Source of the DNA: Comamonadaceae bacterium
GTDB lineage: Bacteria > Pseudomonadota > Gammaproteobacteria > Burkholderiales > Burkholderiaceae_C
Length of the DNA stretch: 64,000 nt
NCBI GenBank assembly: GCA_027483665.1
Contig: JAIXUC010000020.1
Span: 68,719 to 132,718 of the forward strand
Direction: 5' to 3'
Shown here: positions 8,047-50,988 of the stretch, in pieces
Numbering within the stretch: the stretch's first letter is position 1
Layout: each line of letters begins with the position of its first letter
Notes under the pieces: generated by a model
What the model was told of the DNA's origin: nothing
The model's input: only the letters and a program-made list of their open reading frames with translations
The model's database searches: none
Translations under genes and position numbers: made by a program

Positions 8047-9015
8047 CTACTTGTGTTTCGAGGACAAGTCAGCCGGCGAAGAGCGCACGCTCAGCCACAT
8101 GGTCAGCGCGAGCACGGCCACCACCACGCCCAGCGACACCGCCACGGGGATCTTGTAGATGTCGATCAACATCATCTTGGTGCCGATGAACACCAACACC
8201 ACGGCCAAGCCGTAGTTGAGGAGGTGGAACTTGCCAGCTACAGCGGCCAACAAGAAATACATGGCGCGCAGACCCAGAATGGCGAACACGTTGCTGGTCA
8301 GCACGATGAACGGGTCGCTGGTGATGGCAAAGATGGCGGGGATGGAGTCGACCGCAAAGATGACGTCGGTCAGGCCCACCAAGCAGATGACCATCAGCAA
8401 AGGCGTGGCGATTTTTTTACCGTTTTCCACCGTGAAGAACTTCTCGCCGTCGAAGTTCTTCGACACCGGCAGCACGCGGCGCAGCAACTTCAGGGCGGGG
8501 TTGTCATCCAGCGAAGGCTCTTTGCCAGCAGCCCACCACATCTTGACGCCAGTGAGGATCAGGAAAGCACCGAACACATACAAGATCCAGTGGAACTGCT
8601 GCAGCAGCCAGCCACCGATCAAGATCATGATGGTTCGCAAGACGATGGCACCGATGATGCCGATCATCAACACCCGCTTCTGGTAGGCCGGTGGCACCGC
8701 GAAGTAAGTGAAGATCATCAAGAACACGAAGATGTTGTCCACCGCCAGCGACTTCTCGATGAGGTAGCCGGTGAGGAACTCCAGCGATTTCTCGTTGGCC
8801 ACCTCGGTCGAACCCGTGCTGTCTTTGACGGCCCACCAGAACAAGCCGTTGAACACAAAGGACAGGGCGACCCATACCAAAGACCAATTCAGGGCTTCTT
8901 TAACCCCGACCTCATGCGCGCCTTGTTTCTTGAGGACCACAAAGTCCACAAACAGAGACACGAGAACGATGGCCACAAAAGTGACCCACAGCCACATGGG
9001 CGCGATGGTTTGCAT
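8047..9015 (-). CDS. TerC/Alx-family integral membrane protein, putative Mn2+/redox-associated exporter
   Basis: 322 aa, about 9 TM segments, TerC motifs (SLAVDNIFVF..., AVDSIPAIFAITSDPFIVLTSNVFAILGLRAMYF). Preceded by a yybP-ykoY riboswitch. Confidence 0.9.
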   Translation of the reverse strand: MQTIAPMWLWVTFVAIVLVSLFVDFVVLKKQGAHEVGVKEALNWSLVWVALSFVFNGLFWWAVKDSTGSTEVANEKSLEFLTGYLIEKSLAVDNIFVFLMIFTYFAVPPAYQKRVLMIGIIGAIVLRTIMILIGGWLLQQFHWILYVFGAFLILTGVKMWWAAGKEPSLDDNPALKLLRRVLPVSKNFDGEKFFTVENGKKIATPLLMVICLVGLTDVIFAVDSIPAIFAITSDPFIVLTSNVFAILGLRAMYFLLAAVAGKFHLLNYGLAVVLVFIGTKMMLIDIYKIPVAVSLGVVVAVLALTMWLSVRSSPADLSSKHK

Positions 9016-12596: not shown

Positions 12597-14210
12597 CTAG
12601 GGCTGAGTCAGCAGACCGCGCCGCTGCCGCCAAGCTTGGGCCTCTTTAGGAAAAGCCGCGTCAAAACGCGCAAGGACGGCGACGGCCTCTTGCTCTTTGC
12701 CCAGCAGCAAGGCGCTGTCCAGCAGCAACACCACCACTTTCGGCTCGGGCGAGAAATGCAGTGAACGCGTCGCCAGAGCGTGGATGTGCGCCGCGTTGGC
12801 GCGCGTCAGGTCGCTGGTGGTCAGCTCGGCAAAGTCCACCTGGTCGCGAAACAGCAGCGAGGCTTGGGCTTTGGTCAGCGTGTCGGTGCGGTAAGCCTTG
12901 GCGCGTTGCTCGGGTAGCAAGTAGAGCTGGCTGATGCGGTGGTAGTCGAACGTCAGGTAGGCCAGGAAGGCGCACCAGACAACGGCCAGAGTGGCCCCTG
13001 GCCAACGGCTTCGTGGGGTCGCTGGCTGCACCTGCCTGCGCCACAACACCATGCAGCACAAGAACGCGACCAGCTGAAACGGGCCGTACCACAGCGGGTA
13101 CTCCAACAGGCTGTGGATGCCGATCACGGCCAACAGGCCCCAGGCCATCTGGCGCAGCGGGTCGGCTTCGCGCCAAGGGCGGGCGCGCCACACCCACAGC
13201 GCCAACAGAAAACACAGGCCCAGCGTCACCGGCACGCCCAGCGTCACCGCGAGATGCAGCGGCAGGTTGTGCGCGTTGTCCAAGATGGCGCAAAAGCGCT
13301 CGCCGGGGTAGAGCGTGACGAAGTGCGCGTAGTCCAACTCGCCCCAGCCCCAACCGAGCCACGGTTTTTGTGCGATCAGGTGCAACACGTTGGACCACAA
13401 CACCAAACGGCTGCCGCAGCCCTCGTCATCGTCCAAGCGGCTCAGCGCCAGCGCCATGCCTTTGGCGTCGGCACCTGACCACTGCAGGAGCAGCGGCAGG
13501 GCCCATACCGCCGTGAGGTAGAGCGCCAACAAACCGAGGGCGGTCGCCCAGTGCTTGCGCCCCATCGTCTGCAGCCACGTGGCACTTGCGTGAGGCATGG
13601 CATCGGACGGCAGCGGCCCGGCCACTGGGAACAGCGCCACGAACGCGCCCAAGAAAACCCACTGCAACAGACCCGTGCGCGATCCGGTGGCCGCTGCGGC
13701 CAGCGCCAGCACAGCCCAACCCAGCCACAACAGTGCATGGCCCTGCCACGGCGCGCGCCAGACACGGGAAGGCTCAGACGAACGCTGCGCCAAAAGCCAC
13801 CACCAAGCCACCGCGCCCAGCACCAGCAAGGTGGCCAAGTGGTTGCGTTGGCGCAAGTTGGCATAAGCCACGCCCGATGAAGGCGCGACCCAGGGCGACA
13901 GCGCATCGGCAGCGCCGATGAGTTGCACCAAACCCGCCGCCGCGCTCAGCAGCGCGGCTAGGGCCAAGCCAAGCACCCAGGGCGTGAAAGCGGTGGGGTA
14001 AGCCACTGCGGGCGAAGCAACCGCGGGGGAATGAACGCCGGGAGGTGCGGACACCGACCCGCGTCCAAGCCCTGCCAGCAAAGCCGCCATGGCAGCTGCT
14101 GATAACAGCCACTGCAACATCGGCGCGCTGGGGCCAAAGGTCCAAGGCACCAACCACGGCAAGGCGGCGACCGGCAGCCACAGCCAAGCCAAGCGGCGAG
14201 CTGGGCTCAC
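12597..14210 (-). CDS. PglL/TfpO-type O-oligosaccharyltransferase (Wzy_C O-antigen-ligase fold + C-terminal Wzy_C_2 region), paralogue 2
   Basis: Polytopic membrane protein with YANLRQRNHLATLL, SRTGLL and the periplasmic loop WGWGELDYAH...DNAHNLPLHLAVTLG...HSLLEYPLWYGPF. The start is proposed at GTG 14210, in frame with track ORF 12597..14537 at residue 110. It overlaps the upstream stop as GTGA. The Arg/Cys-rich first 109 codons of the track ORF lie inside the upstream gene. Confidence 0.8.
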   Translation of the reverse strand: MSPARRLAWLWLPVAALPWLVPWTFGPSAPMLQWLLSAAAMAALLAGLGRGSVSAPPGVHSPAVASPAVAYPTAFTPWVLGLALAALLSAAAGLVQLIGAADALSPWVAPSSGVAYANLRQRNHLATLLVLGAVAWWWLLAQRSSEPSRVWRAPWQGHALLWLGWAVLALAAAATGSRTGLLQWVFLGAFVALFPVAGPLPSDAMPHASATWLQTMGRKHWATALGLLALYLTAVWALPLLLQWSGADAKGMALALSRLDDDEGCGSRLVLWSNVLHLIAQKPWLGWGWGELDYAHFVTLYPGERFCAILDNAHNLPLHLAVTLGVPVTLGLCFLLALWVWRARPWREADPLRQMAWGLLAVIGIHSLLEYPLWYGPFQLVAFLCCMVLWRRQVQPATPRSRWPGATLAVVWCAFLAYLTFDYHRISQLYLLPEQRAKAYRTDTLTKAQASLLFRDQVDFAELTTSDLTRANAAHIHALATRSLHFSPEPKVVVLLLDSALLLGKEQEAVAVLARFDAAFPKEAQAWRQRRGLLTQP

Positions 14211-16162
14211 GGCTTGGCGCTGGTTGTTGGCGATTTCGCTGGGGCTGCTTCGTCGACACCGGCACCGGCACCTGCACCGCCCTCGCCGCCCACACCGCTG
14301 CCCGCTGCAACAGCGCCGGTACCAGCCCTGGCGTCGATCGCGTTGCGGCTGCCTTGCGTGGCAGAGGCTTTGCGCAACACGTCGCGGAGCGCCAAGAAGG
14401 GGTCGGGCGGGCTGCCCGGCGGCGGTGCGCCCAACTCCGGCACCCAAGGCAGGCGAGGGAAGTCGGGCTGAAAGTGCTGCTTGCGCTCCCACAGCATGCG
14501 ACTTCCCTGGCAGTTGGCGAGTGAATTCAACTCGCACAAGAGACGCATCCAGTCCCGCGCTTCGTCGTCGCGGCCCAAGCGCGCCTCGCCTTCGGCCATG
14601 GCGCTCAAGGCGCCTGCCGAAGGAAATTTCTTCGCCCAGATGCGCATTTGCGGCATCTGCTCACCCGTCGGGTCTTCCTTGGGTCGGTAATTGGCCAGCT
14701 TCAATTGCGCTTGCAATTGGTCAAACAGCCAAACATCCGGCACGTCGGGCCTGCCCAAGGTGCCAATGTTGGCGCGGTCAAAACGCATTTGGAAAAAGCG
14801 GGCTTCCAGGTCGGCGTACTCGACCACGGCGAGCAACAAGAACCCAAAAGACAAACCCACCACGCCCCAAGAGACCGAACGCGGCATGGCCCACAGCACC
14901 CGCTGCGGCTGGCGCGCCAAGGCCCCGCCCAACATCAAGGCGGCAGGAAATAGGAAATAGCCGTAGTACAGCGGGTACTCCAACATGGCGTGGAACAACA
15001 CCGCCATCAGGCAAAACCAAAGAATCCACTCCTCGGTCGTACGAATGGCACGCAAGCGCCGCACCGTCCAAACCCCAGCTACCACGATCATCGTGCCGCC
15101 GATGGGGATGCCGAAGATGAGGAGGGTGTCTAGGAGGAGGTTGTGGCTGTTGGAGAAGTGTCCTGGAAACCCTCTGGGGCCGATTTCCAGCATGGCGATG
15201 TGCGCATCCCCAACGCCTTCCCAGCCGTAGCCAAACCACGGTTTGGCCCAGATGGCGTCGAGGAACATAGACCAGGCCCGCCAACGAACGGGGTCATTGG
15301 GTTCAGACAGAACCCGTCCCACCACACTGAATGGGTCTCCACCAAACAAGGAGTCCGCCAGTTGGTTCGCTAACCAACCCACCACCACCATGAGGCCCAG
15401 CATGGCCGTCCAACGCCAAAGCCAAATGCGCTGCAAGTGGGCTGGACGCCAAACCCACAGCGCAGCGGCCGCTCCCCACAGAAAGTATTGGGCTGTACGC
15501 GAGCCGCTAAGAGAAATTCCCAACACCAAAAAAATAGCGATGAACGTACCGCTGGACACCGACACCGCCTGGCGGTGCATCGCCCAAGCAAGCGCACCCA
15601 AACCCCAGACCAACAAGGTCGCCAGGTGGTTCGGCTGCCCCAAGTTAGCGAAAGGTCGACTACCAACAGGCGGCTGGCCGAAAAACTCGGTAAGCCAGTT
15701 GGTTACAGAGCCCGTCAACCCCAGCCATTGGAAAACCGTGATGCCAACAGACCCGACAGCCGCCAATCCGATCCCTGCAAAAAGCCAATCCAGCAAATGG
15801 TGAGGCTGCTGCTTTTCAAATAGTCTGGCGGTCACCAGCCCAACAATGAAAAGCAAAGCAAAACCTGCCGATAAAAGAACGTCCCCCCGAAACAGCATCA
15901 ATCCGGCGCCCCACTGGCAAACCAGCACAGCCGCCACCATGATCAGGGCAGCCTCTACCGCGCCAAACTCCAGCTGCGGGCTAAATCGCCAAAGGGCTAA
16001 CGCGGTCCAGCCCGTCAAGACAAACGCAGCCAGCGCCTCACCATGAAATGCCAGCCACGGCGGGTGGTGATAGACCACCAACCAGGCTGCGCCGGTCAGC
16101 AGCATCAAGGCCGCAGGTGCGGCGATGCTGGCGAGCTTTCCGGGTTGGCTGCTAAAAAGCAC
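14207..16162 (-). CDS. PglL/TfpO-type O-oligosaccharyltransferase, paralogue 1, with Gly/Ala-rich C-terminal tail
   Basis: It shares motifs with paralogue 2 (FANLGQPNHLATLL, SGSRTAQ, YGWEGVGDAH...SNSHNLLLDTLLIFG...HAMLEYPLYYGYF). It lies immediately downstream of pilA, as tfpO/pilO does in group I Pseudomonas pilin loci. The start is uncertain: GTG 16162 just after the pilA terminator, or ATG 16105. The track start at 16285 overlaps pilA. Confidence 0.8.
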   Translation of the reverse strand: MLFSSQPGKLASIAAPAALMLLTGAAWLVVYHHPPWLAFHGEALAAFVLTGWTALALWRFSPQLEFGAVEAALIMVAAVLVCQWGAGLMLFRGDVLLSAGFALLFIVGLVTARLFEKQQPHHLLDWLFAGIGLAAVGSVGITVFQWLGLTGSVTNWLTEFFGQPPVGSRPFANLGQPNHLATLLVWGLGALAWAMHRQAVSVSSGTFIAIFLVLGISLSGSRTAQYFLWGAAAALWVWRPAHLQRIWLWRWTAMLGLMVVVGWLANQLADSLFGGDPFSVVGRVLSEPNDPVRWRAWSMFLDAIWAKPWFGYGWEGVGDAHIAMLEIGPRGFPGHFSNSHNLLLDTLLIFGIPIGGTMIVVAGVWTVRRLRAIRTTEEWILWFCLMAVLFHAMLEYPLYYGYFLFPAALMLGGALARQPQRVLWAMPRSVSWGVVGLSFGFLLLAVVEYADLEARFFQMRFDRANIGTLGRPDVPDVWLFDQLQAQLKLANYRPKEDPTGEQMPQMRIWAKKFPSAGALSAMAEGEARLGRDDEARDWMRLLCELNSLANCQGSRMLWERKQHFQPDFPRLPWVPELGAPPPGSPPDPFLALRDVLRKASATQGSRNAIDARAGTGAVAAGSGVGGEGGAGAGAGVDEAAPAKSPTTSAKP

Positions 16163-16167
16163 AGGCG

Positions 16168-16192
16168 AAAAAAAACGCCCCCGAAGGGGCGT
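16168..16192 (-). terminator. Rho-independent terminator downstream of pilA
   Basis: Minus strand reads ACGCCCC-UUCG-GGGGCGU followed by U8. That is a 7-bp GC stem with a UUCG tetraloop and a U-tract, starting 15 nt after the pilA stop. Confidence 0.85.
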
Positions 16193-16206
16193 TTGCGTAA
16201 TCAAAC

Positions 16207-16659
16207 TCAGGAGATCGAGCCGCGGCAGCTGGCTGGCAAGAACTGAGCTGGCATGGGGTTGACTGGTGCAGGACCACAGACCCAAGCAACAGTGCCGCCT
16301 GCTTGAACCGTGCCGCGCATCGCGACACCGCGGTTGTTCGCTTGCGCGTTGACCGCTTGTGCAACTGCAGTGATTGTTCCGACTGACAAGCTGTCCCGAA
16401 CGTAAGCGACGCTCGCGACGTATTGGGTCGTCTGGGTTGCGATTGAGACACTGGCGTTGTCGGGCATCACACCCTCAACCGATGCAGATTCAGCCAGGGT
16501 GGTCCGAGCGCCAGACAGGGCCAGAACGACTTCAGAAATCTTAGCGCGGGCCGTGTAATCGTTGTAAGCCGGCAGTGCGACTGCGGCCAAGATGCCGATG
16601 ATGGCGACCACGATCATCAGTTCGATGAGGGTGAAGCCCTTTTGGATGGTTTTCTTCAT
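16207..16659 (-). CDS. pilA: Type IVa major pilin (prepilin), C-terminal disulfide loop, terminal Ser
   Basis: [43 protein letters not shown] is the class III leader with G-1/F+1/E+5. The C-terminus is [23 protein letters not shown]. An AGGAGAG RBS lies 6 nt upstream. Confidence 0.95.
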
Positions 16660-16704: not shown

Positions 16705-16719
16705 GCAGGTTCCATGCCA
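16705..16719 (-). promoter_or_regulatory. Sigma-54 (-24/-12) promoter of pilA
   Basis: The minus strand reads TGGCATGGAACCTGC, against the consensus TGGCACG-N4-TTGC. The invariant GG and GC are exactly 10 nt apart, and the element lies about 45 nt upstream of the pilA ATG. Confidence 0.7.
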
Positions 16720-16940: not shown

Positions 16941-19361
16941 TCACTTGATACACACCGATCGCACCTGCTTCAAATCGGTCAGGCCCATCATGATTTTTTC
17001 CATGCCGTCCATCTTCAGGGTGTGCATGCCGGCTTCCAGCGCTGCTGCAAACAACTCGGCCACGCGGGCGCGCTCTTGAATGAGTTTTTTCGCGGCGTCG
17101 TCGGCAATCAGCAATTCGTGCAGACCCACTCGGCCTTTGTAGCCGGTGTTGCCGCACTTGTCGCAGCCCACCGAGCGGTAGAAGCTGAGGCGGCCGTCCT
17201 TCCCATAGCGGTTCATCCAGCCCTCCAGCAGCTTCTTGGCTTCTGCGTTGGCGTCGGCCTTCCAGGGGCTGGTGTGGCGCAGCTCTTCGGCGTATTCGGT
17301 GACGAAGGATTTGATTTCTGCCGCATCTGGCGTGTAGGCCTGCTTGCACTCGCCGCACAGGCGCTTGGCCAGGCGCTGCGCCAAGATGCCCAGGAGCGCG
17401 TCAGCAAAGTTGAACGGGTCCATGCCCATATCGAGCAAACGCGTGATCGACTCTGGCGCTGAATTGGTGTGCAGCGTGGAGAACACCATGTGGCCGGTGA
17501 GCGAGGCTTCCACGCCCATGGACACAGTTTCTTTGTCGCGCGATTCGCCCACCATGATGATGTCCGGGTCAGCCCGCAGGAAGGCCCGCATGACCAGCGC
17601 GAAGTCGATGCCGGCCTTCTTGTTCACCTGCACCTGGCGCAGGCCCTTTTGCGTGATTTCCACCGGGTCTTCAGCGGTCCAGATTTTGGTGTCTGGCGTG
17701 TTGAGGAACTTCAAGATGGAATGCAGCGTGGTGGTTTTGCCAGAGCCGGTCGGGCCGCACACGTAGAACAGGCCGTAGGGCTTACTGATGGTTTTCTCAA
17801 GACGCTCTTTGTTGTGCGCGGTGAGGCCCAGCTTCTCCAGAGGAATGGGCTCGCCCGAAGCCAAGATGCGCATGACCACGTCTTCGACGCCGCCTGCGGA
17901 AGGAATGGTGGCCACTCGCAGCTCGATGTCCAGCGGGCCGTATTTCTTGAATTTGATCTTGCCGTCTTGCGGCTTGCGGCGCTCGGAGATATCGAGGTCG
18001 CACATGATCTTCAGGCGCGTCACCATGGCCTGGCGAAACTGCGCGGGTACCTCCACATAAGGCATCAGGGTGCCGTCGATGCGAAAGCGGATGCCGGTTT
18101 TGGCTTTGCCGGGCATGGGCTCGATGTGGATGTCCGAGGCCTTCTGATGGAAAGCGTCCACGATGACTTTGTTGACGAACTTCACCAGCTCGTTGTCAGC
18201 GGCGGCAGACTCCAGAGAGTCGTCCAAAGCGCCCTCGTCGTCCAGCGGGCCGTCCATGCCGGCCAGCATGTCGTCGACGCTGCCCATGTCGACCGCCACG
18301 CCAAACAGCTGGTCCAGCGTGGCCTCGAACTCGGCGCGCGTGCTCACGCGGTAGGCGAACTTGGACAACCTGGGAAACACCTGCGGCAGCATGCGCTGCC
18401 CGCGCACTTGCTCAGGGTCCAGGCACATCACCACCAAGCCTTGGGGCGAGTCTTCCAGCGCAATCCAGCCGTGCTCTGCCAAGAACTCCCGCTTGAGCGC
18501 GCCATGCAGCATTTCGCTGCGGATACGCCCTGAGTTGAACGGCTCGTAAGGCACACCAAAAAACGCGCCCAGCGACTTTCCAATTTGTGCGGCACTCAGT
18601 TTGTGGCGCGCCAACAGCACCGACTCCAGCGACTGGCCCTCCTCGCGCGCTGCTTGCACGGCTTCGGCCAGTTGTGCTGACGTGATCAGCTGCGCCGTCA
18701 CCAACCCGTCGTAAGGCGTGGCTTTGCGGCGCTGGTCGTCTTGCGCGCGGTTGATGCGCTGGCGCATGGCCGTGGCGAGGGTCTTGCAAAGCTGCGTGGC
18801 ACCTTCGACCTCCAGCTTGCCAAAAGGCTGACCGCTCTTGTTGTTGATAACTTGCAGCACGCCATGCAAATGCTCGCCCTCGACGATGGGCACCACCAGC
18901 ATCTGCGTGGTGCGGTAGCCAGAGCGCTTGTCGACTTCCTTCAGGTAAGTCAACTTGGGGTGGATGCGTTGCAGCGCCGCTTCGTCGTACACGTCGGCGA
19001 TGTTGAGCAACTGACGGCTGAGCGCCGCATAGCCCGCCAAACTTTGCGGGCCGATGGGCAGCTTCAACTCGCGCGCCGTATTCAACCCGGTCTTTACTTT
19101 GGAGACGATGGTGGTTTGGTCTGGCGACACGGCGTAGAGCGTGAGGCGATCTGCGTTGAGCAGGCGGCAAATGTCTTGGCTGGCCTCCAGCATGAGCTGG
19201 TCTAAGTTCTCTGTGTCGTGGATGCGCGTGCTGACTTGTTGCAGTTGCCGAAAGAACAGCGCCTCGAAGCTGACGCCGCGTTGGTCAGGCGGCAGGTTTT
19301 GCGTGGCAAAGAAGGCCTGCGTGGCTTCGGTGTCGAGAACAGAGGTGGTTGCAGCGTTCAC
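16941..19361 (-). CDS. GspE/PilB-family secretion ATPase with N-terminal GAF domain and T2SSE_N (MshEN-like) domain (806 aa)
   Basis: GAF-like region at about residues 40-200 (LDQLMLEASQDICRLLNADRLTLYAV...GYRTTQMLVVPIVEGEHLHGVLQVINN). Walker A GPTGSGKTTT, Asp box, Walker B DPDIIMVGESRD, His box TGHMVFSTLHTN, and tetracysteine CGEC...CDKCGNTGYKGR. Confidence 0.9.
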   Translation of the reverse strand: MNAATTSVLDTEATQAFFATQNLPPDQRGVSFEALFFRQLQQVSTRIHDTENLDQLMLEASQDICRLLNADRLTLYAVSPDQTTIVSKVKTGLNTARELKLPIGPQSLAGYAALSRQLLNIADVYDEAALQRIHPKLTYLKEVDKRSGYRTTQMLVVPIVEGEHLHGVLQVINNKSGQPFGKLEVEGATQLCKTLATAMRQRINRAQDDQRRKATPYDGLVTAQLITSAQLAEAVQAAREEGQSLESVLLARHKLSAAQIGKSLGAFFGVPYEPFNSGRIRSEMLHGALKREFLAEHGWIALEDSPQGLVVMCLDPEQVRGQRMLPQVFPRLSKFAYRVSTRAEFEATLDQLFGVAVDMGSVDDMLAGMDGPLDDEGALDDSLESAAADNELVKFVNKVIVDAFHQKASDIHIEPMPGKAKTGIRFRIDGTLMPYVEVPAQFRQAMVTRLKIMCDLDISERRKPQDGKIKFKKYGPLDIELRVATIPSAGGVEDVVMRILASGEPIPLEKLGLTAHNKERLEKTISKPYGLFYVCGPTGSGKTTTLHSILKFLNTPDTKIWTAEDPVEITQKGLRQVQVNKKAGIDFALVMRAFLRADPDIIMVGESRDKETVSMGVEASLTGHMVFSTLHTNSAPESITRLLDMGMDPFNFADALLGILAQRLAKRLCGECKQAYTPDAAEIKSFVTEYAEELRHTSPWKADANAEAKKLLEGWMNRYGKDGRLSFYRSVGCDKCGNTGYKGRVGLHELLIADDAAKKLIQERARVAELFAAALEAGMHTLKMDGMEKIMMGLTDLKQVRSVCIK

Positions 19362-20149
19362 AGCTCGAACTCCTGACCCGCGCGCAGCCAGCGGATGTCG
19401 TGGGTGACGTTGGGGCCGAGGGCTTGGGTGAGGTCAAAGCGCTGCACCTCCTCCATGATGGTCTGCGTCTCGGCCGGCTTGGTGTGCGTGATGTAGATCG
19501 GATAGATCTTGTCTTTGTCGATGCAGTCGAGCTCATCAGCCAACGCGCTGGGCGACAGGTGCAGGCTGAGGCGAGCCAGCTCTTTCTCGCGGTTGCTGAA
19601 AGCGGTCTCGATGACCAGCATGGCCACGCGCAACTGGTTCACGCGCTTCCAAAACGCAGGGTTGCGCTCGGTGTCGCCTGAGAACACCCAACAGCCCTGG
19701 CCTTCGGTGATGGCATAGCCCACAGCGGGCACGGTGTGTACGGCGGGCAGTGGCTCGATCACGCGGTGGCCTACCACCTCGGAGCGGCCCACGGCAATCG
19801 CCTCGTAGCGCATGAACGGCGCTTGCTCCGAGGGGATGCGGCTGAAGTCGGGCCAGATGGTGTTGTTGAAGATGTGCTGCTGCAGCGCTTCGATGGTGCC
19901 GGGCAGCGCATGCACGGTGATGGGCGAGGTGCGACGCGCGGCGATGGAGTCGATCATCAAAGGCAAGGCCGCCACGTGGTCGAGGTGCGAGTGCGTCAGG
20001 AACACGTGCTCGATGCGCGCCATTTCATCGAGGGTGAGGTCGCCCACGCCGGTACCCGCGTCGATCAAGATGTCTTGGTCGATCAGGAAAGACGTGGTTC
20101 GGCAGTCTCGTGCGATGGCGCCAGAGCAGCCGAGTACGCGGATCTTCAT
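19358..20149 (-). CDS. Class II 3',5'-cyclic-nucleotide phosphodiesterase (metallo-beta-lactamase fold, CpdP-like)
   Basis: MKIRVLGCSG...FLIDQDILIDAGTG...HVFLTHSHLDHVAALP (HxHLDH) ...GYAITE...WVFSGDT... Its stop overlaps the ATPase start by 4 nt. Confidence 0.85.
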   Translation of the reverse strand: MKIRVLGCSGAIARDCRTTSFLIDQDILIDAGTGVGDLTLDEMARIEHVFLTHSHLDHVAALPLMIDSIAARRTSPITVHALPGTIEALQQHIFNNTIWPDFSRIPSEQAPFMRYEAIAVGRSEVVGHRVIEPLPAVHTVPAVGYAITEGQGCWVFSGDTERNPAFWKRVNQLRVAMLVIETAFSNREKELARLSLHLSPSALADELDCIDKDKIYPIYITHTKPAETQTIMEEVQRFDLTQALGPNVTHDIRWLRAGQEFEL

Positions 20150-20162
20150 CAGGGTCTGACTT

Positions 20163-22412
20163 TCACTTGGAATCGAAGTTGGTGGCGCCGTCCCACTCGG
20201 GGTCGAACGGCAGCTGCCGCATGGCGCTCACCCGTTCACTGTAGAGCTGGTAGAGGTATTTCTTGGGGTTGCTGCGCTGCAAGTTGAGCAGGCCCACGTC
20301 GCAAGCGTCCCAGTCTTGCGTGCGATAGGCTTTCAAGAACGCGGCCCATTGCTTGAGCTCGGACGTGAACTCCGCATCCACCCGCGCGGCGGGCGCAGCA
20401 GGCCAGTAAATGGCAACGGCTTGGGCTTTGCCTTTGACGCGCACGCGGTCCAGCTCTTGCCAGGCGAAGTCCGTGGCGAGCTTGCGCGTGGCGTCGCTGG
20501 CGACGATGTCCACGCCATAGACCTTGCACAAACCCTCCAAGCGCGAACCCAGGTTCACCGCGTCACCAATGACGGTGTAACTGCGGCGAATGTCCGAGCC
20601 CATGTCGCCCACGCACATGTTGCCGGTGTTCAGACCAATGCCAATGCCGATTTCAGGCAGGCCTTTGCTACGGTGCTCTTCGTTGATGGCGCGCACCGAG
20701 TGCGCCATTTCCATGGCGCTTTTGACCGCGAGGTAGGCGTGCTCTGGCAAGTCCACCGGCGCACCCCAAAAAGCCATCACGCAGTCGCCCATGTATTTGT
20801 CGATGGTGCCGCGGTTGCCGCGAATGAGGCCGGTGAGGCGGCTGAACACGTCGTTGAGCAAGGCTTGAAGCTGCGTGGGCTCCATGGTCTCGGACATCTT
20901 GGTGAAGCCGCGCATGTCGCAGAACATCACCGTGAGGTCTTTGTTGGTGGCCTTCATGCTGTAGCTGTCGGGGTCTTTGACCATCTCATCGACCAGCTCG
21001 GGCGGCACGTAGGTGCCGAACAGATGCGCCAGTTCGCGCTTGGAACGGCTCTCCACGAAGTAGCCGTAGCTCATGTTCAAGGCAAAGGCGGTGAGTGCCA
21101 TGGTGAGCGCTGCGGCCAGAGGCAGCACCAAGCCCGCGCCCAGGTAGAGCCAGGTGTTGAGCGCCAGCAGAAACCCGATGACAACCGCACTCAGCGCCAC
21201 GGCACGCACAGCCGACAACAGCGGCAAAGCCACTGCCAACAACACACCGGCCAAGACCAGCAGCACCACTTCGTAGCCCACGGCGTAGTCGGGCTTGACC
21301 AAGCCTTTGCCATCGAGCAGACCTGAGATGACGTTGGCGTGTACCTCGACCCCGGGATACGTCTCGCCCACCGGCGTCACGCGCAAGTCGAGCAGGCCGG
21401 GTGCGGTGGTGCCCAACAGCACGATCTTGCCCTTGAGCGCTTGGGCTGCGGGCCGATTGGCCAGCACATCAGCGGCTGAGACGTAGCGGTAGCTGCCACC
21501 GGTGGGGCCGCCAGGGCCGCGAAACTGCACCAGCGTGGCGACGCGGTTGTCCACGGGAATGGCCAAGACTTTGTCGCCCTGGCGCAGCTGGATGCTCTCC
21601 AAGCCTTGATAAGAGCGCGACAAAAAACGATCCTGCGGGAATCCCGGGCTCACCTCGGGCAGCCCGACCAAAGCACGGAACATGGCAAGTGCCAAAGCCT
21701 CGTAGTAGGCACCTTTGTGCTCGGCCACCAGGGGCACGGAGCGCACCACGCCATCGGCGTCGGTGACGGAGTTGAAAAAGCCCCCCATCGGTGCAGCGCG
21801 GGCCAGTGGCTCGATGTTCGAGCCAAAGCCGTTCCAGCTGGTGAAGCGGATGGGGCGGCCTTGCAGCGCGGTGGCCTGCATCACCGGTGCAGGCAAGACA
21901 CCTGCTGTCAGGCCATCACGGTCGCTGGACAAGTAATAGCCCAAGACCACGGGCCGGTTGCGAAGCGATTGTGCAAACAGCTGGTCGTAATCGAGCCGGC
22001 CTTGCAGCTGCCCGAGCCGGTCTACAAAAGCGGCCTGGTCTTTCAGCTCGCCTTGTGCAAGCTGGCGCAGCTGACGCAGGCCCGAGCTGTCGTCCGGTTC
22101 GGCGAACACCACGTCCATGCCCAAGAGCGCGACCTGGTGCTGGTTGAACAAGGTATCGACCAACTCGGCCATGCGGTTGCGGCTCCATGGCCAGCGCCCC
22201 ACCTCGCCCAAGCTTTTTTCATCGATGTCCACGATGACGATGCGCTCATCGAGCGTGCCCGGCATCGTTGCGCGCAACCTGGCGTCGTAGATGATGTCAT
22301 CGAGGCGTTGCAGCACGCCCAGCTGGAGCACGCTGGTGGCGTGCAGCAACGCAAAAACCAAAGGTATGCAGGTAACCGCTATGCGACGCCAGTGCTTTTG
22401 CAGAGCAAGCAT
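20163..22412 (-). CDS. CHASE2 sensor-domain class III adenylate/guanylate cyclase (749 aa)
   Basis: N-terminal CHASE2 (IVIVDIDEKSLGEVGRWPWSRNRMAELVDTLF), then three or more TM segments. Catalytic domain motifs: LTVMFCDMRGFTKMSE, DKYMGDCVMAFWGAP, IGIGLNTGNMCVGDMGS..RRSYTVIGDAVNLGSRLEG. Confidence 0.9.
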   Translation of the reverse strand: MLALQKHWRRIAVTCIPLVFALLHATSVLQLGVLQRLDDIIYDARLRATMPGTLDERIVIVDIDEKSLGEVGRWPWSRNRMAELVDTLFNQHQVALLGMDVVFAEPDDSSGLRQLRQLAQGELKDQAAFVDRLGQLQGRLDYDQLFAQSLRNRPVVLGYYLSSDRDGLTAGVLPAPVMQATALQGRPIRFTSWNGFGSNIEPLARAAPMGGFFNSVTDADGVVRSVPLVAEHKGAYYEALALAMFRALVGLPEVSPGFPQDRFLSRSYQGLESIQLRQGDKVLAIPVDNRVATLVQFRGPGGPTGGSYRYVSAADVLANRPAAQALKGKIVLLGTTAPGLLDLRVTPVGETYPGVEVHANVISGLLDGKGLVKPDYAVGYEVVLLVLAGVLLAVALPLLSAVRAVALSAVVIGFLLALNTWLYLGAGLVLPLAAALTMALTAFALNMSYGYFVESRSKRELAHLFGTYVPPELVDEMVKDPDSYSMKATNKDLTVMFCDMRGFTKMSETMEPTQLQALLNDVFSRLTGLIRGNRGTIDKYMGDCVMAFWGAPVDLPEHAYLAVKSAMEMAHSVRAINEEHRSKGLPEIGIGIGLNTGNMCVGDMGSDIRRSYTVIGDAVNLGSRLEGLCKVYGVDIVASDATRKLATDFAWQELDRVRVKGKAQAVAIYWPAAPAARVDAEFTSELKQWAAFLKAYRTQDWDACDVGLLNLQRSNPKKYLYQLYSERVSAMRQLPFDPEWDGATNFDSK

Positions 22413-22468: not shown

Positions 22469-23107
22469 TTAGGTCTGTACAAACTGCATCTGGGTACCTG
22501 CCAACTCCAGAACGTCGCCGTCCTTGAGCATGATCGGCTCTGCACCGACAGCCGAGCCGTTGAGCGTAGGCTTGCCAGAGCCTTCGACGTGAGCCACCAC
22601 AAACCCATTGGGACGCTTCGTGATGGCAGCCACCGCGACGCCAGGCTTGCCGATGGTGGTGACCACTTTGACCAGGGCCACTTCACGGCCTGCTGCTGCC
22701 CCAGATAGCACCTTGATGACACCCGATATGGCATGGTCCAGAGGCGCTGGCGCTGGCGCATGACCTGCAGGAGCAGCAGAGCCGGCCCGCATGATCATGG
22801 TTTTGTCGTAGTTGGCTGGGGCGTCAGCGACGAATTTGATCTGGTACTTGCCGATGTCGATCGTGTCGCCGCCCTGCATCAGCTGCTTTTTGATGGCCTT
22901 GCCGTTGATGTACGTGCCGTTGGTGCTGTTGAGGTCTTCGATGTAGACCTCGTTGCCCATCATCTGCAGCACCGCATGCTCACCACTCACTGCGAGGTTG
23001 TCGATGACGATGTCGTTGTAGGGCCGTCGGCCGAGCGTGGTCCGGTCCTTCGTCAACTGGACCTCCTTGATCACGACACCGTCGATCGATACGATCATCT
23101 TCGGCAT
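22469..23107 (-). CDS. FHA-domain protein with a canonical N-terminal FHA and a degenerate C-terminal FHA-like module
   Basis: N-module: TTLGRRPYNDIVIDNLAVSGEHAVL...IEDLNSTNGTYINGKAI (G-R...S-x-x-H...NGT). A Pro/Ala linker follows, then the C-module ...TTIGKPGVAVAAITKRPNGFVVAHVEGSGKPTLNGSAV. Confidence 0.85.
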   Translation of the reverse strand: MPKMIVSIDGVVIKEVQLTKDRTTLGRRPYNDIVIDNLAVSGEHAVLQMMGNEVYIEDLNSTNGTYINGKAIKKQLMQGGDTIDIGKYQIKFVADAPANYDKTMIMRAGSAAPAGHAPAPAPLDHAISGVIKVLSGAAAGREVALVKVVTTIGKPGVAVAAITKRPNGFVVAHVEGSGKPTLNGSAVGAEPIMLKDGDVLELAGTQMQFVQT

Positions 23108-23158: not shown

Positions 23159-23944
23159 TTATTTCCCTAGGAAGCGCGCGATCAACCCCGGCTTGCGCAC
23201 CACGGCTTGCGCCTTGACCAGCAACACCGAGATGTTATCGCGCCCTCCGCTGGCATTGGCGGCCTCAATCAGCCGCGTCGCCAGACCCTCTAATTCCACC
23301 TCTTCGAACAAGATACGGGCAATGTCGGCGTCTTGCAGCATGTCGGACAAGCCGTCTGAGCACATCAGGTAGAGGTCGCCTGGCTCGACTCGGTGTTCAT
23401 TGACTTCCAGCAAAACGTTGTCTTCGACACCCAAAGCGCGGGTGACCAGATTTTTGTTCAGCGAAGTCGCCGCCTGCTCGGCCGTGATGAGGCCCGCGTC
23501 CAGTTGCTCTTGCAACAGTGAGTGGTCACGGGTGATCTGCGACAACTCGGCCCCGCGCCAGCGGTAACAGCGCGAGTCGCCAATGTGGCCCAGCATCAGG
23601 CGGGTGTCTTGAAACACGCCCACCACCAAAGTCGTGCCCATGCCCGTGTATTGGGTGTTGGAGTTGGCGGCGTGGAAGATGGACCTGTTGGCGTTGTCCA
23701 CGCAAATTTCCAAGGCCCGGCGCACCACCTTGGCCGTTGCGCTGGGTCCTGCTTCACTCAGCCAGCGGCTCATTTCCGACTTGATGAAGGCCGTGGCCAT
23801 GCCGCTGGCAATTTCGCCTGCGTTGTAGCCGCCCATCCCGTCAGCCAGCACGCCCAAACCTGTGCTGGCTTCGAATCCGACCGAGTCTTCGTTGTTCTCA
23901 CGAGCCAGACCCGGGTCGGTCTGGGCACAAAACGTGTAATTCAT
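23159..23944 (-). CDS. PP2C-family Ser/Thr protein phosphatase (Stp1/PppA-like)
   Basis: TDPGLARENNEDS..., LADGMGGYNAGEIAS, LMCSDGLSD and GGRDNISVLLV are the metal-binding PPM motifs. Confidence 0.92.
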   Translation of the reverse strand: MNYTFCAQTDPGLARENNEDSVGFEASTGLGVLADGMGGYNAGEIASGMATAFIKSEMSRWLSEAGPSATAKVVRRALEICVDNANRSIFHAANSNTQYTGMGTTLVVGVFQDTRLMLGHIGDSRCYRWRGAELSQITRDHSLLQEQLDAGLITAEQAATSLNKNLVTRALGVEDNVLLEVNEHRVEPGDLYLMCSDGLSDMLQDADIARILFEEVELEGLATRLIEAANASGGRDNISVLLVKAQAVVRKPGLIARFLGK

Positions 23945-23962: not shown

Positions 23963-26689
23963 CTAGAGGGAAAGGTCGGTATTGTCGCTGCGGCCCGTGC
24001 CAGCGCTGGCGCTGGGGTTGGGCACTGCGCGCCCGGGAACGGTTTGATCAAAAGCCGGTGCGGACACCGACATCTTCTGGGTGGTGTCCATCGGATCGGT
24101 GGGCTGGGCTGCGGCATTGGGTCGGACATCGGCTTGGCTGGCCGATGCAGGGCTTGCGCCTGCGGACCGGTCGCCCATGACCTGCAGCAAATCGTTGGCG
24201 AACTGATCGCCGTCTTGGTAACGGGTTTCTGGCCGCTTGCTCAACGCGAGCGCCACCACGTCTGCCAGGCGTTGCGGTATCTCAGCTCGGACGATGCGGA
24301 TGTTGGGCGCTTCTTCGTTGGCAATCTTGTACATCAGCTCAGCCATCGAGTCGCCCCGGAAAGGCAACACGCCCGTGAGGAGCTGATAGAGCATGACGCC
24401 CAAGGAGTACAGGTCCGATCGGCCGTCGACCTTTTTGCCAGCAATCTGTTCCGGCGACATGAAGCTGGGGGTGCCCAGCACCAAGCCCGTTTTGGTCTTG
24501 CTCGAGTCGGTGATGCGGGCAATGCCAAAGTCGGTCACCTTCACGGTGTCAGACTCATGCTCGTACATGATGTTGGCGGGCTTGATGTCGCGATGCACCA
24601 CGTTTTGCCGGTGCGCGTAAGCCAAGGCTTGCGCGACGCGCGCCACGATGGACACCACACGCTCGATGGGCAGCAACTGCCCACCGCGGCCGTAATCCGC
24701 CAAGTCTTTGCCCTTGAGAAACTCCATGGCGATGTAGGCCAAGTCGTGCTCTTCGCCGGCGTCAAAAATCGTCACGATGTTTTGGTGCTGCAGCCGGCCA
24801 GCCGTTTCGGCTTCGCGGAAGAAGCGCTCGCGCGCATCGTCGAGCTCACCGCCTTCGAACTCTTGGCTGAGCGCCATGGTCTTGATGGCCACCACGCGCC
24901 CGATCTTGGGGTCGCGCCCCAGGTAGACCACGCCCATGGCACCTTTGCCCAGCTCCTTCTCTACCTGATAGCGCCCCAGCATCGGCTTCTCTACGGCACC
25001 GCCATCGAGCAGCATGGTGCCGCCCGGGTGGGTGCTGCCGCCGCCGAGGATGACCGTCTCGGAGAGGTTTTTGGCGCGGTTGAGCTTGGACTTCAGGTCT
25101 TTGAAGTTGGGGTTGTAGGTAGCCATGTACTCGTACACGGCCTGCACCTTGTTGAACTGGCGCTTGCGCTCAAAGTCGAGCGCCAGGCTGTTGAGGTTGT
25201 CCATCACTGCATCGGCCAGCGGCACGCGGCGGAAGCGGTCGAAAGCTGCGTCGAGCTGGCCCTGGCCTTGCAGCGCCAAACCCATCATGCGGTTGGTCTC
25301 GGCCGACTCTTCGTCAGAGCGAACTTTGCCCGCCTCGGTGACCAAAAACCGCTTGGTCGTGAGCGCCAGGTGACCGATGAGCAGCAAGGCCGCCGGGAAC
25401 ACCAGCGGCAACCACAAAGACGCGCCCGAGAGCAAACCGAACTCGGTGCCCAGCAACACGACGAACAAGCCACCCGTTACAGCAGCGCCCGTTCCAGCGG
25501 ACAAACGCGGCAGAGCGGCGATCAGATAGGCGCTGATGACAAGAAACGCACCCAAAGAGGCCCACAAGCCCCAGCCGGGCTGGGTGATGAAGTGCTCGCT
25601 CAAGATGCTGGAGGTGATGTGCGCGATGGTCTCGGCAGGCGACAAGCCGGGGTAGCCAGGGGTGGGGAACTGAACACCCACGCCGGCAGCGGTGGCACCA
25701 ATGATGACGATCTTGTCGGCGTACTTCGCAGCCGGAATCTTGCCGCTGATGACGTCGTAGAAGGAATCGACCGCAAAAGCCGGTTTGCCGTCGACCGGAC
25801 GGTAGAACTGCGGGCGCATGCGCGCCGACTCGTCGGTGGCCACGCGCAGCTTGCCGATCTGTACCGACTCGCCCGGGTTCAGGCGGATGTCGGCCGACGA
25901 CAGGTTCAGGCTGTTGGCAGCTGCCAACAAAGCCAGCGATGGCACGGCCTTGCCGTAGTAGTTGACCAACAGCGGCTCTTCACGCACTGCGCCGTCAATG
26001 TCTTGAAACTGGTTCAGGTGCGCAACACCTGCGGCCGCTTGGCCGATGGCCGCCATGGGTTGCTGGCCGCGCACCGCTGGTACGGAAAAGCCGCTGGTCT
26101 CATCGACCGCGCTCTTCAGCGCGAAGTCGGGCAGAGGCTCGTCTGGCCGGCCTAAAGGCTCGCCCAGCGTGAACACCGAGGGAATGAGCACGTTGCGGGC
26201 GCGCGCCATGCTGGCGGCCAGCTTGGCGTCGGTGTCCAGTGCCACTTCGGCCTCGGAGATGACGCCCAACAATTGCTGCGCCAAGTCCGAGCCGCCTGAG
26301 GACGAGTCGGCCGCCGGCACCAACACCTCTTTCATCTTGCGGATGAACCCCAAGCCGCGGTCGGTTTGCGGCTCCAGGAAAAACGCGGTGTGGACGATCG
26401 TCTTGGCCTTGGCTGCAGACAACTGATCGATCATGGCCGCGTGGACATCCCGAGGCCAGGGCCAGCGGCCAATGTTGGCAATGCTTTGGTCGTCGATGGC
26501 GATCACCGCAATGCGGTCTGACGGCTGCCGCGCTGAGGCGGTGCTGCCAAAGTCATAGAACTTCCTCTCCAGCGCGCCGATGAAGTCGGTGGCTTGGTGC
26601 AGCACGATGACGGCCAGCACGACGAGCACGCCAACAACCCAGTCCGCGCGCCAGATAGCGCTGCGTTTGGATGAATGAGATGTGGCCAC
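23963..26689 (-). CDS. CHASE2 sensor-domain Hanks-type Ser/Thr protein kinase (908 aa)
   Basis: N-terminal CHASE2 (IAVIAIDDQSIANIGRWPWPRDVHAAMIDQL) and a TM block. Kinase domain motifs: LGKGAMGVVYLGRD, VVAIKTM, VVHRDIKPANIM, DFGIAR, GTPSFMSPEQ. Ser/Ala/Pro-rich tail. GTG start with an AAGGGA RBS. Confidence 0.9.
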   Translation of the reverse strand: MATSHSSKRSAIWRADWVVGVLVVLAVIVLHQATDFIGALERKFYDFGSTASARQPSDRIAVIAIDDQSIANIGRWPWPRDVHAAMIDQLSAAKAKTIVHTAFFLEPQTDRGLGFIRKMKEVLVPAADSSSGGSDLAQQLLGVISEAEVALDTDAKLAASMARARNVLIPSVFTLGEPLGRPDEPLPDFALKSAVDETSGFSVPAVRGQQPMAAIGQAAAGVAHLNQFQDIDGAVREEPLLVNYYGKAVPSLALLAAANSLNLSSADIRLNPGESVQIGKLRVATDESARMRPQFYRPVDGKPAFAVDSFYDVISGKIPAAKYADKIVIIGATAAGVGVQFPTPGYPGLSPAETIAHITSSILSEHFITQPGWGLWASLGAFLVISAYLIAALPRLSAGTGAAVTGGLFVVLLGTEFGLLSGASLWLPLVFPAALLLIGHLALTTKRFLVTEAGKVRSDEESAETNRMMGLALQGQGQLDAAFDRFRRVPLADAVMDNLNSLALDFERKRQFNKVQAVYEYMATYNPNFKDLKSKLNRAKNLSETVILGGGSTHPGGTMLLDGGAVEKPMLGRYQVEKELGKGAMGVVYLGRDPKIGRVVAIKTMALSQEFEGGELDDARERFFREAETAGRLQHQNIVTIFDAGEEHDLAYIAMEFLKGKDLADYGRGGQLLPIERVVSIVARVAQALAYAHRQNVVHRDIKPANIMYEHESDTVKVTDFGIARITDSSKTKTGLVLGTPSFMSPEQIAGKKVDGRSDLYSLGVMLYQLLTGVLPFRGDSMAELMYKIANEEAPNIRIVRAEIPQRLADVVALALSKRPETRYQDGDQFANDLLQVMGDRSAGASPASASQADVRPNAAAQPTDPMDTTQKMSVSAPAFDQTVPGRAVPNPSASAGTGRSDNTDLSL

Positions 26690-26859: not shown

Positions 26860-27591
26860 TCAGACGGGAGCCGGGGGCTGTGGTCGGCGACTCTGCAGCC
26901 ACTTGCCCAGTGCATACACCAACAGTGCGCCAGCGACCCCAGCGCCGTAACGCAACGCATCCGAGGCGGGCAGCTTGGGCATCCACGGAACAACCGCTGC
27001 ATCGACCAAAGCGGGGTCGGTCACGGCCATGGTGCCCGCTATCCAGCCCAGCAGCATGCCACCGGCCACGATGATGATGGGGAAGCGGTCCATCAGTTTG
27101 AGCACCAACTGGCTACCCCAGACGATGATAGGAATGCTGACCAGCAGGCCGAAGATGACCAAAGCCAGTTGATGCTGCTCACCGGCGCTTTGCGCCGCAC
27201 CCGCGATGGCGATCACGTTGTCCACGCTCATCACCAAGTCGGCCACGATGACGGTTTTCACGGCAGACCAGAGCTTGTCGCTGCTCTGGATGTTGGCGTG
27301 CCCGTCGTCTGACTCTGGCAGCAACAGCTTCACGCCGATCCACACCAGCAGAAGGGCCCCGACCAACTTCAAGAACGGCACCGACAGCAATGCCAAGGCG
27401 AAGGCGATCAAGATCACCCGCAAAACGATGGCGCCGATGGTGCCCCAGATGATCCCCTTGCGCCGCTGCTCTGGCGGCAGCGATCGGCAAGCCAGCGCAA
27501 TGACCACCGCGTTGTCGCCGCCCAGCAAGATGTCGATCATGATGATCTGACCGACTGCTAGCCAAAAGTGGGCGGTCAGAAACTCTTCCAT
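26860..27591 (-). CDS. TerC-family (YjbE-like) integral membrane protein, second paralogue
   Basis: IMIDILLGGDNAVVIALACRSLP and VIVADLVMSVDNVIAIAGAA are the duplicated TerC motifs. 40 nt downstream of sucD on the same strand. Confidence 0.85.
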   Translation of the reverse strand: MEEFLTAHFWLAVGQIIMIDILLGGDNAVVIALACRSLPPEQRRKGIIWGTIGAIVLRVILIAFALALLSVPFLKLVGALLLVWIGVKLLLPESDDGHANIQSSDKLWSAVKTVIVADLVMSVDNVIAIAGAAQSAGEQHQLALVIFGLLVSIPIIVWGSQLVLKLMDRFPIIIVAGGMLLGWIAGTMAVTDPALVDAAVVPWMPKLPASDALRYGAGVAGALLVYALGKWLQSRRPQPPAPV

Positions 27592-50868: not shown

Positions 50869-50988
50869 GTCAAAGATTTTTGGTATGTTGAATCAGCGGG
50901 TGTGCGCGTGGGCGCGTGCCCGCATGTGAGCGAGCGTGCGCACCAGCGCGCACGTTGGCGCGCGTACACACGGAGCGGGATTGTAGAT

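Follow-up and report, generated by a model that had tools for sequence, protein, structure and literature searches.

A stretch of 64,000 nucleotides from a Comamonadaceae bacterium (GenBank assembly GCA_027483665.1, contig JAIXUC010000020.1, positions 68,719 to 132,718 of the forward strand), here called the window, encodes an ATPase of the PilB/GspE family that carries an extra GAF domain at its N terminus. This protein, hereafter the GAF-ATPase, and the signals that may act upon it are the subject of the present analysis. All of the genes between 26689 and 12597 lie on the minus strand and code, in the order of transcription, for a CHASE2-sensor Ser/Thr kinase, a PP2C phosphatase, an FHA-domain protein, a CHASE2-sensor adenylate cyclase, a putative cyclic-nucleotide phosphodiesterase, the GAF-ATPase, a type IVa pilin and two proteins of the PglL/Wzy_C type (Table 1). 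The open reading frame (ORF) that had been assigned to the ATPase in an earlier sequence-only reading of this DNA is real, and its start codon is preceded by a GGAG ribosome-binding site at a distance of 9 nt. The GTG start is credible, because homologues of 805-807 aa align over their full length. Within the 806 residues of the protein there are three parts, i.e. a GAF domain (residues 53-198), an MshEN/T2SSE_N region (approximately residues 215-355) and a complete PilB/GspE-type ATPase (residues 388-800). Each is recognized by Pfam, with the GAF family PF01590 at E = 2.4e-11 (44.8 bits vs a cut-off of 22.4), MshEN (PF05157, residues 268-355) at 32.3 bits (cut-off 23.1) and T2SSE (PF00437) at E = 5.5e-115 (384 bits, cut-off 24.9). 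The GAF_2 and GAF_3 models likewise exceed their cut-offs. The N-terminal GAF domain claimed in the sequence-only reading is borne out by all three Pfam GAF models, and the observation as a whole goes well past what chance would give.

Within the C-terminal part of the protein, the complete secretion ATPase that had been described from the sequence was found as quoted, including the Walker A motif (GPTGSGKTTT, residues 536-545), the Walker B motif (DPDIIMVGESRD, residues 598-609), the His box (TGHMVFSTLHTN, residues 622-633) and the tetracysteine site (CGEC, residues 669-672, and CDKC, residues 733-736). An Asp box (ERRKPQDG) occupies residues 460-467. All four cysteines are invariant among 44 homologues, so that this feature of the extension-type GspE/PilB proteins is present. 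The solved proteins nearest to the ATPase core are the PilF and PilB of Thermus, at 340-349 bits, followed by GspE at 319-328 bits.

Judged from its closest relatives and its contact residues, the GAF domain is a member of the cyclic-nucleotide (cNMP)-binding subfamily. A single-sequence search of solved structures returned as its top match the cAMP-binding GAF tandem of Anabaena CyaB2 (1YKD, E = 3.8e-24), followed by a GAF-HD-GYP protein and then the cNMP-binding GAFs of PDE2A, PDE10A, PDE6C and PDE5. When a GAF family profile built from 31 orthologues was run against the solved structures, 1YKD was matched at E = 2e-38 (135 bits) and the next match, at 3.6e-18, was 20 orders of magnitude behind. 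With the same profile, the GAFs of PDE5, PDE6, PDE2 and PDE10 scored approximately 1e-16 to 1e-15, the PtsP GAF 5e-7, and bilin GAFs 4e-7 to 2e-4; 18 of the 19 best profile matches were cNMP GAFs, the remaining one being the GAF of 4MCW. In CyaB2 GAF-B, cAMP is contacted by R291, T293, I308, D356 and N359 (PMC4411481). The comparison with cAMP- and cGMP-binding GAFs that the sequence-only reading had proposed therefore has CyaB2 as the nearest in sequence and the contact Arg, Thr and Asp as kept (R72, T74 and D144 in the GAF-ATPase), with I308 and N359 conservatively replaced by V89 and S147, positions that hold V or I and S or T across the family. The aligned stretches of CyaB2 and the GAF-ATPase are NADRST and NADRLT (containing R72 and T74), TKIT and SKVK (V89), and IDQQNGYRT and VDKRSGYRT (D144 and S147). 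Among 75 orthologues (58-80 % identity), R72, S107, G110, D144, G148 and R150 are invariant, and T74 (T or S), A109, Y149 and T151 are nearly so; the pocket signature is also retained in most of the single-GAF representatives at 27-45 % identity. The position of R291 is an Ile in the aligned, cGMP-binding GAF-B of PDE2A, and cAMP would therefore be favoured over cGMP. Residues 30-212, as modelled with AlphaFold2, adopt the canonical fold of a GAF domain, with a predicted local distance difference test (pLDDT) score of 91 and, in comparisons with GAF structures, template modelling (TM) scores of 0.65-0.77 when normalized by the query, the top fold match being 4MCW. The GAF domain ends in a long C-terminal helix (residues ~182-210), which appears in this model as well as in a model of the full-length protein that was made from a shallow alignment (44 sequences at 76-80 % identity) and used for its secondary structure only. 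A fold search with the full-length model returned PilB first and GAFs next. A PtsP-type (nitrogen-sensing) GAF, which an NCBIfam match had raised as a candidate, was rejected, since the PtsP GAF scored ~30 orders of magnitude worse than CyaB2.

Between the GAF domain and the motor lies the segment that the sequence-only reading had described as T2SSE_N-like. This segment, residues 216-264, corresponds to the MshEN_N half with its four helices, ends shortly before the Pfam MshEN match begins, and aligns to the first MshEN-type (GSPII) domain of Thermus PilF, which binds cyclic di-GMP (c-di-GMP). MshEN domains that bind c-di-GMP contain two tandem 24-residue motifs of the form RLGxx(L/V/I)(L/V/I)xxG(L/V/I)(L/V/I)xxxxLxxxLxxQ (Wang et al., PMC5013675). 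On alignment of the segment to these motifs, a check that had been advised together with the claim of a degenerate MshEN lacking its leading Arg-Leu-Gly, the degeneracy was borne out and proved to extend further, to both half-motifs, the turn Gly and the terminal Gln. In the first half-motif, Arg-Leu-Gly is replaced by T-P-Y (family consensus T-K-Y), the turn Gly by Q224 (G or A in most relatives) and the terminal Gln by A238; in the second, the respective replacements are S-L-E, with a Glu that is invariant in the family, H253 (F or Y in most relatives) and F267. The NCBIfam model for the c-di-GMP motif (NF053729) scores 25.4 bits, below its cut-off of 38. A relaxed form of the published pattern, as coded and run without a positive control, had no match in the GAF-ATPase, in the 75 orthologues, in 120 close homologues or in 28 distant full-length representatives. 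By alignment, then, the helical scaffold of the MshEN domain is retained and its c-di-GMP contacts are lost in every family member examined. That the input was swapped from c-di-GMP to a GAF ligand, as the sequence-only reading put it, is an evolutionary step that we infer.

The cyclase that had been claimed two genes upstream of the ATPase was located, and the gene between, absent from the sequence-only reading, encodes a putative, class-II-type phosphodiesterase. From its sequence, the cyclase would appear to be a functional adenylate cyclase. Its catalytic domain matches PF00211 at 85.6 bits, and its closest solved relative with a natural sequence is CyaB of Pseudomonas aeruginosa (3e-30). 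The specificity residues, K539 (in GTIDK539YMGD) and T613 (in YT613VIGDAVN), make up the Lys/Thr pair of adenylate-specific class IIIb enzymes; P. aeruginosa CyaB has Lys/Thr at these positions and the guanylate cyclase Cya2 has Glu/Gly. The metal-binding residues D499 and D543 and the transition-state Asn/Arg pair, N620 and R624, are all present. Among the relatives' sequences that match the surrounding motif patterns, the Lys occurs in 46 of 46 and the Thr in 29 of 29. The phosphodiesterase carries THSHLDH, i.e. the HxHLDH signature, plus the motif following it, and its best solved relative is yeast PDE1 (4OJV), a class II enzyme (E = 1e-9). It matches PF02112 at 57 bits (cut-off 23.7), albeit over profile positions 82-147 of 340 only, and it aligns over the full length of the NCBIfam model for cyclic-nucleotide-degrading phosphodiesterases with a score (36.9 bits) far below the cut-off of 400. 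The ATPase start codon overlaps the phosphodiesterase stop codon by 4 nt (ctGTGAac), and the phosphodiesterase is translationally coupled to the ATPase.

The architecture and the gene order are both widespread. More than 120 homologues at 76-80 % identity, in Polaromonas, Variovorax, Ramlibacter and Curvibacter, have the same architecture, relatives were found in at least 596 species genomes in a scan of one genome per species, and a search with the first 390 residues yielded 175 clusters (at 50 % identity) with E <= 1e-30, some of them double-GAF forms of ~1000 aa. The operon recurs across the Burkholderiales, Rhodocyclales and Nitrosomonadales. Synteny was counted over 80 fetched loci, using for each gene those with enough flank, and the counts for cyclase and FHA are too low owing to split alignments. 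The phosphodiesterase gene is directly upstream of the ATPase gene in 57 of 74 relatives, the cyclase gene occurs in no fewer than 43 of 66, the FHA gene lies upstream of the ATPase in 51 or more of 63 (farther out than the cyclase and phosphodiesterase in the loci that have them), and the PP2C gene is present in 54 of 58. In the relatives with <66 % identity, which belong to the Rhodocyclaceae, Nitrosomonadales and other Burkholderiales, a gene for a cNMP_binding-rhodanese protein lies between phosphodiesterase and ATPase in 17 of 23 loci, and a GAF-HD-GYP gene directly follows the ATPase in 20 of 24. In a locus representative of the 58-64 % identity range, these two genes are at L060:8695-9762 and L060:12447-14075, respectively, and the arrangement is similar in L052-L080; the flanking GAF-HD-GYP gene links the cAMP module of these relatives to c-di-GMP breakdown. 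A 41 %-identical relative retains the metallo-beta-lactamase (MBL)-fold gene directly upstream, and in a double-GAF relative with 37 % identity a class III cyclase is encoded at a distance of two genes. Given the specificity pair, the coupled phosphodiesterase and the conserved arrangement, the link between the GAF-ATPase and the neighbouring cyclase appears stronger than the sequence-only reading knew. In the surroundings of the 37 %-identical relative (L082:7326-8648 and L082:22856-23012) there are a class III cyclase gene nearby and a second gene that combines a cyclase domain with a PilZ domain.

Based on these results, the GAF-ATPase is probably an accessory type IV pilus extension ATPase, paralogous to PilB, that is regulated by cAMP through its GAF domain. 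The CHASE2 domain of the adenylate cyclase would sense an extracytoplasmic signal, the cyclase would raise cAMP, and the class-II-type phosphodiesterase, being coupled to the ATPase, would keep the signal short-lived. cAMP would bind the GAF pocket made up of R72, T74, S107-x-A-G110, D144 and G148-Y-R-T151, and the change would travel via the long C-terminal helix of the GAF domain (~182-210) into the MshEN bundle, whose c-di-GMP site is lost, and from there would reach the hexameric motor or the docking of the motor on the pilus platform. Activation seems the more likely effect of cAMP, by analogy with CyaB1/CyaB2 and PDE2. The interpretation offered in the sequence-only reading, in which the GAF ligand was plausibly the product of the nearby cyclase, is in this respect supported, and it is strengthened by the presence of the phosphodiesterase, by the specificity residues of the cyclase and by the operons of distant relatives. 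A second input, which that reading did not consider, would probably come from the CHASE2 Ser/Thr kinase, the PP2C phosphatase and the FHA protein as reader of phospho-threonine; this trio is conserved as well as the cyclase and phosphodiesterase are, and the CHASE2 domains of kinase and cyclase are paralogous (25 % identity, E = 9e-17). We further suggest, tentatively, that the locus may encode a self-contained two-branch circuit running from the cell surface to the pilus motor, in which paralogous CHASE2 sensors drive local cAMP, read by the GAF domain of a dedicated ATPase paralogue, as well as a checkpoint based on threonine phosphorylation and FHA, similar to the one in type VI secretion. 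Within such a circuit cAMP would act post-translationally, perhaps choosing which PilB paralogue engages the shared machine, and the co-encoded GAF-HD-GYP protein of related lineages would connect it there with the breakdown of c-di-GMP.

Several observations weigh against cAMP control, the case for which is built wholly from homology and gene neighbourhood. The NKFDE-like motif that the sequence-only reading had suggested looking for is partly kept, in that N174, K175 and F180 are present and conserved, but its final D-E is E184-V185 here and is variable in the family. Isolated CyaB2 GAF-B binds cGMP too (PMC4411481), and therefore the specificity for a ligand is not readable from sequence by itself. 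Comparison of folds does not separate the ligand classes, as PtsP and bilin GAFs match approximately as well as cNMP GAFs do, and the argument about the ligand therefore rests on sequence. For any coupling path, the full-length AlphaFold2 model is too poor (pLDDT 53, predicted TM score 0.33). Lastly, 14 loci with at least 4.5 kb of upstream flank (~15 when judged by eye), most of them of the Rhodoferax type, are without the cyclase and phosphodiesterase, and yet their GAF pocket is unchanged; in the subset that has lost both genes (L004, L016, L031, L036-L044, L047, L051 and L074) the FHA gene is directly upstream of the ATPase and PP2C is kept in most. Therefore, either the adjacent cyclase is not the sole source of ligand or the ligand may differ.

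These points lend some weight to an alternative in which the GAF domain does not bind cAMP and is instead a ligand-free dimerization or scaffold module, or a binder of cGMP or of a metabolite, the cAMP of the operon being received elsewhere, for example by a CRP-type regulator or by the cNMP-binding-rhodanese protein. Such an alternative is unlikely, although it would accommodate the incomplete NKFDE motif, the ~15 relatives that keep the GAF domain in the absence of cyclase and phosphodiesterase, the close fit of non-nucleotide GAFs to the fold (PtsP at TM 0.77-0.84, and bilin GAFs too), and the separate cNMP_binding protein of the distant operons, which could be the true receptor. In sequence, however, CyaB2 (2e-38) is far nearer than any non-nucleotide GAF (about 5e-7 or worse), and the (near-)invariance of the contact Arg, Thr and Asp and of the S-x-A-G and G-Y-R-T elements is hard to explain for an empty pocket.

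Less probable still is that Ser/Thr phosphorylation is the main control, with the FHA protein reading a phospho-threonine set by the kinase and PP2C to license the ATPase, as in type VI secretion, and with the cAMP/GAF branch secondary or lineage-specific. In the group of relatives with at least 66 % identity, FHA (42/42) and PP2C (35/37) are indeed at least as constant as the phosphodiesterase (34/50) and cyclase (28/45); the FHA gene stands directly upstream of the ATPase where the latter two are missing, and the PP2C protein passes the Stp1/IreP equivalog cut-off. Nevertheless, no phospho-site was identified on the ATPase, phosphorylation leaves the invariant GAF pocket unexplained, and it is compatible with regulation by cAMP through the GAF domain rather than exclusive of it. 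T50 (in T-E-N-L) was tried as a candidate phospho-threonine and dropped, being invariant among close homologues only and variable in distant ones.

It is very improbable that the protein is the ordinary PilB of the clade, with the GAF domain as a lineage-typical decoration that has no special regulatory meaning. The architecture is very common in the Comamonadaceae and beyond, and a major-pilin gene is directly downstream of the ATPase gene, as would suit such a protein. However, the score of 472.6 bits on the PilB equivalog (TIGR02538) is below the cut-off of 675.65, even though this is the best-scoring NCBIfam model, and the 433.8 bits on the GspE model are also under that model's cut-off; RefSeq labels the orthologues only as 'GspE/PulE family protein'. 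Among the Pfam-scanned ORFs of the window there is no pilC, pilD or other pilus gene beyond the pilin, and pilC/pilD were not found in the flanks of relatives, where the same housekeeping genes occur instead. In the genome paper on Ramlibacter tataouinensis, the orthologue Rta_37350 is listed as GAF-PilB in an annotation line of the supplement, and the paper reports that PilB has three paralogues in this genome, which contains a single pilD located in a pil cluster of its own. Because it falls below the equivalog cut-off, is not beside pilC/pilD and has a counterpart in a genome with three PilB paralogues, the GAF-ATPase is a PilB paralogue and not a standard PilB with pilC/pilD adjacent in relatives, a possibility that the sequence-only reading had itself named.

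A role of the cyclase/kinase cluster in defence against phages, as an island of the Pycsar-like or kinase-based kind in which the ATPase is a bystander, is hardly credible, since the matches of the cyclase and kinase to the PADLOC models PycC (98.8 bits) and PD-T4-6 reflect generic fold-level similarity among class III cyclases or protein kinases, the Lys/Thr pair of the cyclase is the one for a purine (ATP), an effector of the Pycsar type is missing, and, unlike a mobile island, the cluster is flanked in different genera by the same housekeeping genes, i.e. sucCD/TerC and the gene for an M48 peptidase.

Compared with known extension ATPases, i.e. MshE of Vibrio cholerae, PilF of Thermus and PilB of Myxococcus, the GAF-ATPase has the same MshEN and N2/C-terminal ATPase body with intact motifs, and the sensing of a second messenger at the N terminus would be shared. 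It differs from them by its extra N-terminal GAF domain, the loss of the c-di-GMP-binding residues and a location that is not beside pilC/pilD. With the GAFs of CyaB1/CyaB2 and of PDE2, PDE5, PDE6 and PDE10, it shares the fold, the pocket elements ADR-x-T, S-x-A-G and D-x-x-S-G-Y-R-T, and the placement of the GAF N-terminal to the effector and joined to it by a long helix; however, there is a single GAF here rather than a tandem, the last two positions of the NKFDE motif are E-V in place of D-E, and the effector is a hexameric secretion-type ATPase rather than a cyclase or phosphodiesterase. Related bacterial examples of GAFs coupled to second-messenger enzymes are the GAF-HD-GYP phosphodiesterase PmGH (4MCW), which is both the second-best sequence match and the top fold match to the GAF of the ATPase, and the cAMP-binding GAF-GGDEF protein Lcd1 of Leptospira (5W10). 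The output of both is c-di-GMP turnover, not a motor ATPase, and there is no GAF-HD-GYP gene in the window.

Twitching, surface sensing, the uptake of DNA and the formation of biofilms depend on type IV pili. The known post-translational control of their motors is by c-di-GMP (through MshEN, FimX and PilZ proteins), and cAMP is known to act via transcription factors. Among related pilus controls, that of c-di-GMP through FimX-PilB stands beside the CyaB/CpdA/Vfr system of P. aeruginosa with Pil-Chp, which like the present locus ties a class III adenylate cyclase and a cAMP phosphodiesterase to pili. In Pseudomonas, cAMP acts on transcription through Vfr, whereas here the motor itself carries the sensor and shares its operon with the cyclase and phosphodiesterase, so that direct post-translational control is implied. 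To our knowledge, post-translational control of a type IV pilus motor by cAMP has not been described. The threonine-phosphorylation pathway of the type VI secretion system (T6SS) consists of the kinase PpkA, the PP2C phosphatase PppA and Fha1. The same trio of membrane Ser/Thr kinase, PP2C and FHA protein stands here beside a component of a secretion-type machine, the resemblance being an analogy and not a tested homology; unlike in the T6SS pathway, the partner is a pilus ATPase rather than the type VI apparatus, and the sensor of the kinase is CHASE2. If true, an extension ATPase that reads cAMP directly would represent a new and fast layer of control, equipped with its own cyclase and phosphodiesterase, in a family that is widespread in environmental Betaproteobacteria and conserved in sequence. 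The locus would also show, in a natural setting, how two pathways, one working through a nucleotide and the other through phosphorylation, can converge on the same machine from a single kind of sensor domain, CHASE2. In the literature, no functional study of GAF-fused PilB/GspE-type ATPases was found, the only mention being the annotation of Rta_37350; the combination of a PilB-type ATPase with a cNMP-type GAF is thus uncharacterized, its architecture having already been noticed in annotation.

Table 1. Genes, domains and other elements at the GAF-ATPase locus (coordinates are those of the window)
Feature	Coordinates	Strand	Details
GAF-MshEN-T2SSE ATPase, PilB/GspE-family paralogue	16941..19361	-	806 aa, GTG start
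GAF domain, cNMP-binding type	18768..19205	-	residues 53-198 (fold ~30-212); Pfam, nearest structure, pocket conservation
Degenerate MshEN_N four-helix bundle, without c-di-GMP-binding residues	18561..18719	-	residues 215-267; NCBIfam score, PilF alignment
MshEN/T2SSE_N domain, C-terminal half	18297..18560	-	residues 268-355; Pfam PF05157
T2SSE ATPase core with Walker A/B, Asp and His boxes and Cys4 site	16962..18200	-	residues 388-800
MBL-fold, class-II-type cyclic-nucleotide phosphodiesterase	19358..20149	-	263 aa; PDEase_II, Lactamase_B_2 (Pfam)
CHASE2-sensor class III adenylate cyclase	20163..22412	-	749 aa; CHASE2, Guanylate_cyc (Pfam)
FHA-domain protein	22469..23107	-	212 aa; FHA (Pfam), E = 1.1e-22
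PP2C Ser/Thr phosphatase	23159..23944	-	261 aa; PP2C_2 (Pfam); Stp1/IreP equivalog 242.8 bits vs cut-off 230 (NCBIfam)
CHASE2-sensor Ser/Thr protein kinase	23963..26689	-	908 aa; CHASE2, Pkinase (Pfam)
Type IVa major-pilin gene	16207..16659	-	150 aa; Pilin, N_methyl (Pfam); leader MKKTIQKG, mature N terminus FTLIELM
Sigma-54-type promoter-like sequence upstream of pilin	16705..16719	-	TGGCAT-N5-CTGC; consensus match only
Strong intrinsic terminator after pilin gene	16173..16194	-	9-bp stem, 6 GC pairs, then T run (terminator scan)
Two PglL/Wzy_C-type O-oligosaccharyltransferase-like genes	14207..16285, 12597..14537	-	PglL_A, Wzy_C, Wzy_C_2 in both (Pfam)

Because the pilin gene has a promoter-like sequence and a terminator of its own, it is probably transcribed apart from the ATPase operon. 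The pilin ends in ...CRGSIS, with a terminal Ser after the Cys-Cys loop, and is followed by the two PglL/Wzy_C-type genes, a layout that recalls the TfpO/PilO glycosylation of Pseudomonas group I pilins. The true start of the first of these two genes is probably downstream of 16173. The FHA protein contains an Ala/Pro-rich linker and a C-terminal region of ~90 aa that has no Pfam match and is apparently beta-rich, as judged from the sequence; this region may be a second, degenerate FHA-like domain.

The remainder of the window consists of housekeeping genes, and no structured RNAs, including riboswitches, were found in it by Rfam. On the plus strand, positions 50902-54009 encode a bacterial-type DNA topoisomerase of 1035 aa with a C-terminal SWIB/MDM2 domain. 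Two paralogous genes for TerC-family membrane proteins (8047-9015 and 26860-27591, minus strand) lie <20 kb apart.

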